A stretch of DNA of 64,000 nt from Candidatus Niyogibacteria bacterium (GCA_016214345.1 JACROR010000009.1:241-64240); one strand, 5' to 3'; numbered from the stretch's first letter, positions 46,050 to 46,472 are shown. Translations and numbers: made by a program. The notes: a model not told the origin generated them from the sequence alone.

Positions 46050-46232
46050 TTAGTGATTACGCATACCAGGGTGGAAAAATCGACATCTGCGACCACAACC
46101 GGAATGGTCACATTCTTTGTCTTCCTTGCCCTTACTTTCGGTTCTTCGGGCTGACCAACCGCAACTCGCAACAAAAAAACCAACAACAAAAACAATGCAT
46201 GCAAACAACGCTACTTGGACAATCGTAAGCAT
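46050..46232 (-). CDS. small TM peptide with Cys/His-rich C-terminal tail (paralog 2)
   Basis: SD aaggagg; MLTIVQVALFACIVFVVGFFVA then CGWS...ECDHSGCGRRCRFFHPG. Confidence 0.5.
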   Translation of the reverse strand: MLTIVQVALFACIVFVVGFFVASCGWSARRTESKGKEDKECDHSGCGRRCRFFHPGMRNH

Positions 46233-46250
46233 AAGACTTGCCTCCTTGTA

Positions 46251-46472
46251 TTAAACTTTAGTGCCAACGCTATGGCTATGCAAGCTGTGGCGGCTGCGGC
46301 CGCAAGTGCAATGACAATCGGTTTTGGGATCCGATGCGCCGGTAGCGCAAGAACAGCCCTTTTCCTGGGTTTTGGGCTGGCTGGTTCTGACCATGTAGAG
46401 CCCCACCCCAAAGAGTAAAAAGAGTAAAAGCGCCAACAAGCCCAGCACAATATCTGTAATAGTTAGACTCAT
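46251..46472 (-). CDS. small TM peptide with Cys/His-rich C-terminal tail (paralog 1; start at internal Met with strong SD)
   Basis: SD aggagg then ATG: MSLTITDIVLGLLALLLFLLFGVGLYMV...GCSCATGASDPKTDCHCTCGRSRHSLHSH. Confidence 0.5.
   Translation of the reverse strand: MSLTITDIVLGLLALLLFLLFGVGLYMVRTSQPKTQEKGCSCATGASDPKTDCHCTCGRSRHSLHSHSVGTKV

Follow-up and report, generated by a model that had tools for sequence, protein, structure and literature searches.

What might two very small, cysteine-rich membrane peptides be for, encoded side by side between rpsO and a recombinase gene in an ultra-small bacterium? The question is raised by positions 46,050 to 46,472 of a 64-kb stretch of DNA (the window, GCA_016214345.1 JACROR010000009.1:241-64240, analysed over its whole length of 64,000 nucleotides) from Candidatus Niyogibacteria, a groundwater ultra-small bacterium of the Patescibacteria, or candidate phyla radiation (CPR). 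A sequence-only reading had pointed here to two adjacent minus-strand open reading frames (ORFs), each with a perfect Shine-Dalgarno (SD) sequence, and its coordinates, lengths, SD sequences and peptide sequences were all correct. The two frames, designated pepA and pepB, form a compact two-gene minus-strand operon (pepAB) between rpsO and the gene of a Xer-type recombinase, divergent from rpsO. Judged by their conservation they are real genes, and their products may be membrane-tethered, cytoplasm-facing metal-thiolate binders that buffer metal locally or hand it over to a transporter, a reading that is favoured here tentatively, its chance being put somewhat short of even. Read along the minus strand from 46620 to 45900, the locus contains the rpsO start (on the opposite strand), the promoter elements TTGACA and TATATA, pepA, pepB, a terminator, a REP-like repeat and xer. 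The parts of the operon itself are as follows:

46526..46554, minus strand: putative pepAB promoter, read from the sequence (-35 element TTGACA at 46554-46549, 17-nt spacer, -10-like element TATATA at 46531-46526)
46482-46477, minus strand: SD sequence of pepA, AGGAGG, 4 nt before the ATG
46251..46472, minus strand: pepA, 73 residues (ATG at 46472, stop codon at 46253-46251)
46247-46241, minus strand: SD sequence of pepB, AAGGAGG, 8 nt before the ATG and contained in the 18-nt gap between the two genes
46050..46232, minus strand: pepB, 60 residues (ATG at 46232, stop codon at 46052-46050)
46012..46040, minus strand: intrinsic terminator that closes the operon (11-bp stem with 6 G-C pairs, 7-nt loop, T-run)

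Architecture and membrane topology of the two peptides

Both peptides open with a strongly hydrophobic segment (Kyte-Doolittle 19-mer mean of 2.74 in PepA and 2.80 in PepB), corresponding to a transmembrane (TM) helix at about residues 8-28 of PepA and 2-23 of PepB. AlphaFold2 placed helices at residues 3-30 and 2-30, respectively, with predicted local distance difference test (pLDDT) values of up to about 90 from shallow alignments, in agreement with the single N-terminal helix originally assigned to each, and one such helix is found by hydropathy in every family member (19-mer means 1.75-2.80). Beyond it, PepA carries a juxtamembrane RTSxPK motif, a tail with CSC-x10-CHCTCGRS and a His-rich end, while PepB has an RR/K-rich linker, the block E-C-D-H-S-G-C-G-R-R-C and a terminal FHPGMRNH. 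The resulting Cys/His patterns are CxC-x10-CxCxC in PepA and C-x-H-x2-C-G-x2-C in PepB, and the tails are as dense in these residues as had been claimed, with 5 Cys and 4 His in PepA and 4 Cys and 3 His in PepB. The common architecture is a membrane anchor followed by a Cys/His-rich tail of 38-47 residues; AlphaFold2 gave the tails of PepA and PepB pLDDT values of about 50 or lower, and a confident helix with an unstructured tail is, in such models, what would be expected of an apo-metallothionein-like peptide.

The distribution of charge is the same in all five proteins of the family, with no Lys or Arg before the helix and two to five within the 15 residues after it, several of them also having Asp before the helix. 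By the positive-inside rule an N-out/C-in topology is predicted, with the Cys/His tails in the cytoplasm, as the earlier reading had supposed, and this topology would keep their thiols in a reducing environment. PepB was also considered as a lipoprotein (V-A-S-C24) and rejected as such, its n-region having no Lys or Arg and the L082 homologue introduced below having no lipobox at the aligned position.

These features bear directly on the suggestion of a bacteriocin/immunity pair, and more generally on exported peptides, including precursors of Cys/Ser/Thr-modified RiPPs (ribosomally synthesized and post-translationally modified peptides). The Cys/Ser/Thr-rich tails do resemble the cores of lanthipeptides or azole peptides, and the YxzE-like putative bacteriocin family PF25184 touches one homologue only (E = 0.023), at 16 bits, far below its cut-off of 40. 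Against export stand the five sequences themselves, which have no conserved double-glycine or Sec/lipoprotein cleavage site, and whose N-region without positive charge and hydrophobic stretch of about 20-24 residues fit an anchor, not a signal peptide. A context scan of 34 large window ORFs (30 compared with Pfam, and four neighbours for which precomputed Pfam labels were used) showed no peptide maturase (YcaO, LanB/M or radical-SAM enzyme), no ABC exporter and no immunity gene; the flanking genes are housekeeping genes that are syntenic without the cassette. The bacteriocin/immunity suggestion is not supported by these comparisons, and exported peptides of any sort are considered highly improbable.

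The two peptides had further been taken for paralogues, and such likeness as there is between them lies in the helix. BLASTP found no similarity between PepA and PepB, and hhalign aligned only the helix (18 columns, probability 88%). Whole-length Smith-Waterman scores exceeded those of segment-preserving shuffles in five of the six A-B pairs (p = 0-0.02), driven by the helix, the clearest likeness being that within L082 (IFLAGYYVG in PepA, SFLCGYYVH in PepB). The tails alone were not significantly similar (p = 0.15-0.74). The pair may plausibly have arisen by duplication, the tails having since diverged.

Conservation of the operon in close relatives

Relatives of the locus were fetched by way of the neighbouring Xer protein, which yielded 80 loci from GTDB species representatives. 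In 71 fetched loci rpsO lies upstream of xer and divergent from it, with a gap that ranges from 55 bp to about 3700 bp. In most relatives it is about 60-150 bp long, without a peptide gene, and in an outgroup (L003, Xer 74% identical) it measures about 105 bp. Unrelated small or accessory ORFs are found in this spacer in different lineages, and the rpsO-xer slot behaves as a gene-gain hot spot. The pepAB cassette is restricted to the closest relatives (Xer about 92% identical), namely L002, L082 and L083, of which the last two are contigs assembled from SRA runs and found by an exhaustive search of 1.84 billion representatives. In all four cassette loci the site is flanked by rpsO and xer.

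The homologues of PepA encoded at this site have 67 residues in L002 and 62 in L082 and L083. Identity among PepA of the three lineages is only 57-71%, and the invariant positions comprise M1, R-T-S-x-P-K, all five Cys, H54 of the CHC motif, CHCTCGRS and the exact 10-residue spacer. Nei-Gojobori estimates gave a proportion of non-synonymous differences (pN) of about 0.25 against a synonymous proportion (pS) of about 0.85-0.87, hence a pN/pS of about 0.3, and an omega of 0.11 for L002 against L082; since pN is well below pS and omega is this low, pepA is, on these estimates, under purifying selection. In L082 and L083 a homologue of pepB of 64 residues occupies the same position, with its own SD sequence, 17-18 nt after the pepA stop codon. 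The window and L082 versions of PepB are 32% identical (BLASTP E = 6e-7) and have E-C-D-H-x-x-C-G-x-x-C in common, and pN/pS is about 0.54.

The anatomy of the operon is likewise the same in the window and in L082, with a promoter, two SD sequences, a 17-18-nt gap and a terminator. The -35 element TTGACA is identical in L002 and L082, and the L082 promoter (TTGACA-17-TATACT) scored 11/12 in a promoter scan that left the pepAB promoter of the window unlisted, as its -10 element TATATA fails the T6 rule of the scan. A hairpin terminator of the same kind stands after the last peptide gene of L082 (5134-5165) and, as read from the sequence, of L002. Conservation of the ORFs and of their Cys spacing in related genomes was among the checks that the sequence-only reading had called for, and position, Cys spacing, SD sequences, promoter and terminator are all kept in the closest relatives.

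The arrangement in L002 deserves a separate description. A three-way DNA alignment of L002 3816-3900 with window 46050-46320 and L082 4856-5130 revealed an in-frame deletion of about 200 bp in L002, which starts at about codon 59 of pepA and takes away nearly all of pepB. The remaining ORF of 67 codons keeps the last eight codons and the stop of pepB and is a natural pepA-pepB fusion, ending in I-H-H-G-M-H-W-H, read in the pepB frame, where the window has F-H-P-G-M-R-N-H; past the fusion stop, the L002 sequence is homologous to that past the L082 pepB stop. This natural fusion speaks for translation of the pepB frame and for a position of both tails on one side of the membrane. The terminal H-x-G-M-x-x-H is present in PepB of the window and in the L002 fusion and missing from PepB of L082; the fusion would fit a useful His/Met C-terminal end.

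The flanking genes have changed far more slowly, rpsO being 97-99% and Xer 92-93% identical (non-synonymous rate, dN, 0.005-0.05), against a dN of 0.31-0.61 in the peptide family, a non-synonymous rate 6-40 times that of the flanks. The synonymous rate (dS) of the flanks is 0.5-1.3, close to saturation, and because synonymous sites are near saturation the survival of both frames, the SD sequences, the spacing and the terminator is meaningful. The tree of PepA, ((L002, L082), window), agrees with that of the flanks, and the composition of pepA (GC 0.51) and pepB (GC 0.45) is without sign of foreign origin next to neighbours at 0.43-0.50; the neighbour-like GC and the matching tree point to vertical descent of the cassette within a small clade.

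It could be argued that one or both ORFs are non-functional, being recently arisen or decaying frames in a variable intergenic region, with pepB the more doubtful of the two. In searches of billions of proteins the family came up in only three to four metagenome lineages, all closely related, the gap of the 74%-identical outgroup is short, the pN/pS and identity of pepB are those given above, and gene callers skipped pepB in this genome. Set against this are the low omega of pepA, the in-frame nature of the L002 deletion, and the frames, SD sequences, spacing, Cys patterns and terminator that survive at near-saturated synonymous sites. Chance expectation is also low: in the 64 kb, pepA and pepB were the only ORFs combining an SD sequence, an N-terminal hydrophobic helix and at least three tail Cys, and 200 first-order Markov shuffles of the window yielded no such ORF. 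No further convincing ORF with a TM helix and a Cys tail was seen in about 640 kb of related Paceibacteria loci, nor between rpsO and xer in 71 other Paceibacteria loci. Non-functional frames are accordingly judged decidedly improbable.

The same rates may be read in another way, with pepA and pepB as small membrane-active toxic or stress peptides, similar to type I toxins or holins, in which the helix is active, the Cys tail is incidental or regulatory, and fast evolution reflects conflict or weak constraint. Their size, single hydrophobic helix and charged tail are typical of type I toxins, their dN exceeds that of the flanks as described, their distribution is narrow, pepB has been lost as a separate gene in L002, and the cassette lies in a variable intergenic slot beside REP elements. 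The most conserved residues, however, are the tail Cys/His and RTSxPK and not the helix, and the strong SD sequences and consensus -35 element are unlike those of tightly repressed toxins. Moreover, there was no sign of a conserved antisense RNA or antitoxin ORF (the frame at 45956..46228, antisense to pepB, lacks conservation), and there was no PHROG or PADLOC match. This explanation is regarded as improbable.

Metal binding by the tails and comparison with known systems

Searches of sequence databases suggest that pepAB constitutes an orphan family of small bitopic Cys-rich microproteins confined to one CPR sublineage and to three or four related genomes. With PepA, PepB and the PepB alignment as queries, a word-indexed search of 5.8 billion proteins returned the queries themselves and the L082 PepB only, and phmmer, run exhaustively with PepA over 1.84 billion representatives, returned PepA itself and P0002 only. 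Nothing was found in scans of JGI metagenomes with the PepA alignment, in scans of IMG/VR, or by tblastn against GenBank phages. The single JGI match for the PepB alignment (L084) was discarded, since it amounts to nine residues, DHSGCGRRC, that occur by chance within a HypF gene region. For the peptides no score reached the threshold in Pfam, NCBIfam, PHROGs or PADLOC, and profile searches of the PDB gave no match. PF12669 is the only Pfam family that touches PepA, and does so at 10 bits (E = 1.1) against a gathering cut-off of 27, in one of the five sequences; PepB and the three homologues did not match it at E <= 10. For NF052418, the MymT family (cut-off 80 bits), there was no NCBIfam match to PepA or PepB at E <= 10.

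Coordination of a metal or metal cluster would be the simplest function for these tails, since what selection has preserved is the basic motif and the Cys/His pattern, in a short segment with predicted disorder and a predicted cytoplasmic location; binding of a metal or a cofactor would best account for the invariant patterns. It is proposed that PepA and PepB each insert with a very short N-terminus outside and one TM helix, so that the Cys/His tails, probably without a fold of their own, would be held at the cytoplasmic face of the membrane. There they would most likely bind a soft metal, either Cu(I) or Zn(II), with an Fe or Fe-S (iron-sulfur) centre as the less likely case, the ligands being CxC-x10-CxCxC with His in PepA and C-x-H-x2-C-x3-C with the terminal His/Met in PepB; the terminal H-x-G-M-x-x-H would be compatible with soft-metal ligation. 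The peptides, singly or as an A/B hetero-oligomer, would then serve as a metallothionein-like membrane-tethered metal buffer or as a hand-over partner for a membrane transporter. We infer metal binding, the identity of the metal, the partner and hetero-oligomerisation alike.

CxC and CxCxC motifs are a hallmark of metallothionein-type Cu(I)/Zn(II) thiolate clusters. In comparison with known metal-binding systems, the nearest to pepAB appear to be PF12669 for architecture, MymT and SmtA for ligand motifs, and CupA for the principle of an anchored cytoplasmic site; the pair belongs to none of these families. Bacterial metallothioneins have been reviewed (PMC7558416), and among them the mycobacterial MymT binds up to six Cu(I) (PMC7558416). 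The MymT sequence used here was validated against NF052418 (99.6 bits). Its C-S-H-E-G-C-G-C recalls C-D-H-S-G-C-G-R of PepB, and its C-H-C-A...C-T-C-G recalls C-S-C-A...C-H-C-T-C-G of PepA; MymT has 7 Cys and 2 His, and the motif regions of PepA and PepB combined have 8-9 Cys and 2 His. In composition-preserving shuffles, CDHSGCGRRCR of PepB against CSHEGCGCRVR of MymT gave p = 0.001 with the window peptide and p = 0.14 with that of L082, and CSCA..GA.D...CTCG of PepA against CHCAGAGDAYRCTCG of MymT gave p = 0.02-0.06, both being post-hoc likenesses at the level of motifs. The corresponding hhalign comparisons gave P = 6e-4 for PepB, at a probability of only 28%, and P = 0.01 for PepA, at only 4%. 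Unlike PepA and PepB, whose motifs are on two separate polypeptides, MymT is a soluble protein of 53 residues without a TM helix. The resemblance is not evidence of homology and may be convergent; by analogy, the conserved blocks of PepA and PepB seem to be of the kind used in this proven Cu(I)-thiolate protein.

The CupA copper chaperone of Streptococcus pneumoniae offers a precedent for the placement, with an N-terminal TM anchor and a cytoplasmic metal-binding module at the membrane (PMC7558416); it binds Cu at two defined sites, S1 and S2, and the Cu exporter CopA is described alongside it (PMC7558416). The tails of PepA and PepB differ in being 38-47 residues long and predicted unstructured, with no sequence similarity to CupA and no copA neighbour. 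SmtA and BmtA are, similarly, small Cys/His-rich metal-thiolate binders with CxC motifs, although PepA, PepB and their homologues have no Pfam match to the prokaryotic metallothionein family; SmtA is soluble, with a zinc-finger-like fold (PMC7558416).

The peptides of PF12669 have about 45-75 residues and begin with a single TM helix, after which come a basic linker and a Cys-rich C-terminal tail for which metal binding is presumed (PMC8749426), as is the case for PepA and PepB in outline. Their genes lie immediately after feoB, or the peptide forms part of FeoB by fusion, and their Cys motif is Cx3-5Cx2-3Cx6-8C (PMC8749426); a redox or Fe-S role has been proposed for those next to FeoB and for FeoC-like elements. 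On an alternative reading of this kind, PepA and PepB would serve a membrane complex with its genes elsewhere in the genome, for example a transporter or a respiratory or redox enzyme, as its accessory or regulatory subunits, and their Cys tails would sense redox or hold Fe-S or Fe. This reading is favoured by the N-terminal helix and Cys-rich C-terminus, as in the one Pfam family to which PepA gives a hint, by the conserved bicistronic operon, and by Cx4Cx3C of PepB, which fits the first three positions of the published motif (PMC8749426). The fourth ligand position is nevertheless His (at +8 in L082 and at +4/+10 in the window) or absent, not Cys, and the patterns CxC-x10-CxCxC of PepA and CxHx2Cx3C of PepB differ from the motif as a whole. 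Furthermore, the match of PepA is far below threshold, the neighbours of pepAB are rpsO and xer in four loci, no feoB or other partner gene was seen among the scanned window ORFs and no partner can be named, and pepAB is a two-gene pair of Patescibacteria, whereas PF12669 occurs in Firmicutes and Bacteroidetes. Such a subunit role is considered unlikely.

Several observations also weigh against a metal-thiolate function for the tethered tails. No significant match to any metal-binding family was obtained in Pfam, NCBIfam or the PDB, the PF12669 and NF052418 results being those given above, and the likeness to MymT was picked post hoc, is weak for PepB of L082 and has low hhalign probabilities. 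Among the 34 large window ORFs there was no feoB, metal transporter or metalloregulator, and the genomic context carries no functional signal, because the adjacency of rpsO and xer persists without the cassette. The rapid non-synonymous evolution and the dispensability of pepB as a separate gene in L002 would be compatible with a marginal or conflict-related role.

A bolder form of the metal-thiolate proposal can be put forward as a split membrane-anchored metallothionein, in which PepA and PepB, paired by way of their related helices, would combine their tails in a single Cu(I)/Zn-thiolate cluster on the inner side of the membrane, the PepB tail corresponding to the N-terminal half of MymT and the PepA tail to its C-terminal half. 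Such a protein would have arisen recently, possibly de novo and then by duplication, in one Niyogibacteria-like CPR sublineage, and one descendant would have been remodelled by an in-frame A-B fusion. As a whole this scenario is speculative and improbable.

Surroundings of the operon and significance of the pair

The features around the operon are as follows:

46598..46879, plus strand: rpsO, divergent neighbour of pepAB
46505-46533, plus strand: rpsO promoter, TTGTCA-17-TATAAT
46486-46499, minus strand: perfect 14-bp palindrome/direct repeat GTTAACGCGTTAAC in the 5' untranslated region of pepA
45956..46228, plus strand: antisense ORF of 90 residues, an automatic gene call in place of pepB in the Logan copy of the contig
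45969-45991, minus strand: REP-like inverted repeat TGTCGGAAACTCCATTTCCGACA, the downstream boundary of the cassette, outside the operon
45006..45926, minus strand: xer, Xer-type tyrosine recombinase, with its own promoter-like site
44973-44995, plus strand: second perfect copy of the REP-like repeat, on the other side of xer
41860-42597, minus strand: ORF of 245 residues matching Y1_Tnp (IS200-like) at 36.5 bits
41622-41644, 42583-42605 and 43008-43030: degenerate copies of the REP-like repeat around the Y1_Tnp ORF

The operon does lie, as had been stated, between a REP copy (45969-45991) and the rpsO promoter. The promoters of pepAB and rpsO overlap (46505-46554), with their -10 regions in a common AT-rich stretch that belongs to a region well kept in L002 and L082, and the two divergent units may compete for RNA polymerase. 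The palindrome at 46486-46499, with the counterparts TGAAT-GCG-TAAAT in L002 and TGAAT-GCG-TGAAT in L082, could be an operator or an RNA element. A scan of 45800-46800 with Rfam gave sub-threshold noise only, and no riboswitch or leader was found in that interval.

The REP-like repeat (REP, repetitive extragenic palindrome; consensus TGTCGGAAACTCCATTTCCGACA) occurs in five copies within 4.4 kb, where none is expected by chance, and the two perfect copies bracket xer in opposite orientation. It is present in L002, degenerate in L082 and missing from more distant relatives. With the Y1-transposase-like ORF, this may represent a REP/RAYT-type system (RAYT, REP-associated tyrosine transposase) in a CPR genome. 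A dif-like site or Xer-mobilised cassette was considered and set aside: with five copies in 4.4 kb, absence from distant relatives of the same synteny and a Y1-transposase-like ORF nearby, the repeat near xer fits ordinary REP elements better than a dif-like site. Further along, at 44582-44948, between the gene of the CCA-adding enzyme and xer, several ORFs of 76-119 residues overlap tRNA-Arg(TCG) (44729-44802, minus strand) and are almost certainly not genes. The ORFs of the context scan are housekeeping or pilus genes, and encode PNPase, an NYN protein, a DksA-type zinc-finger protein, a ComM-like Mg-chelatase, a LysM/M23 peptidase, UvrD, KsgA, Lnt, iPGM, RNase Y, YmdB, ClpP, trigger factor, NusA, H+-PPase, PilB/C/M, LeuRS and TsaD, in addition to the Y1-transposase-like ORF.

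The annotation of the two genes has been uneven. PepA is recorded at NCBI as the hypothetical protein MBI5045568.1, whereas pepB of this genome is unannotated and its exact sequence is missing from 15 billion proteins. The antisense ORF at 45956..46228 begins within the REP element and crosses the terminator, and its similarity elsewhere is limited to the first 18 residues, which are encoded by the REP element; because it starts there and has no homologue beyond these residues, it is probably a spurious gene call that masks pepB. The latter is an example of a real microprotein gene missed by annotation pipelines and once replaced by a spurious antisense ORF.

The practical impact of these findings is limited, the family being tiny, its host uncultured, and no link leading from the operon to a larger system. 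To our knowledge, the metal homeostasis and the small-protein repertoire of CPR bacteria are hardly known. In this setting pepAB provides an example of accessory microproteins evolving very fast between slow housekeeping genes, and L002 one of a natural in-frame fusion of adjacent microprotein genes in a close relative; if the tails bind metal, the pair would represent a new, lineage-restricted, membrane-tethered, two-peptide metallothionein-like module in a CPR bacterium.

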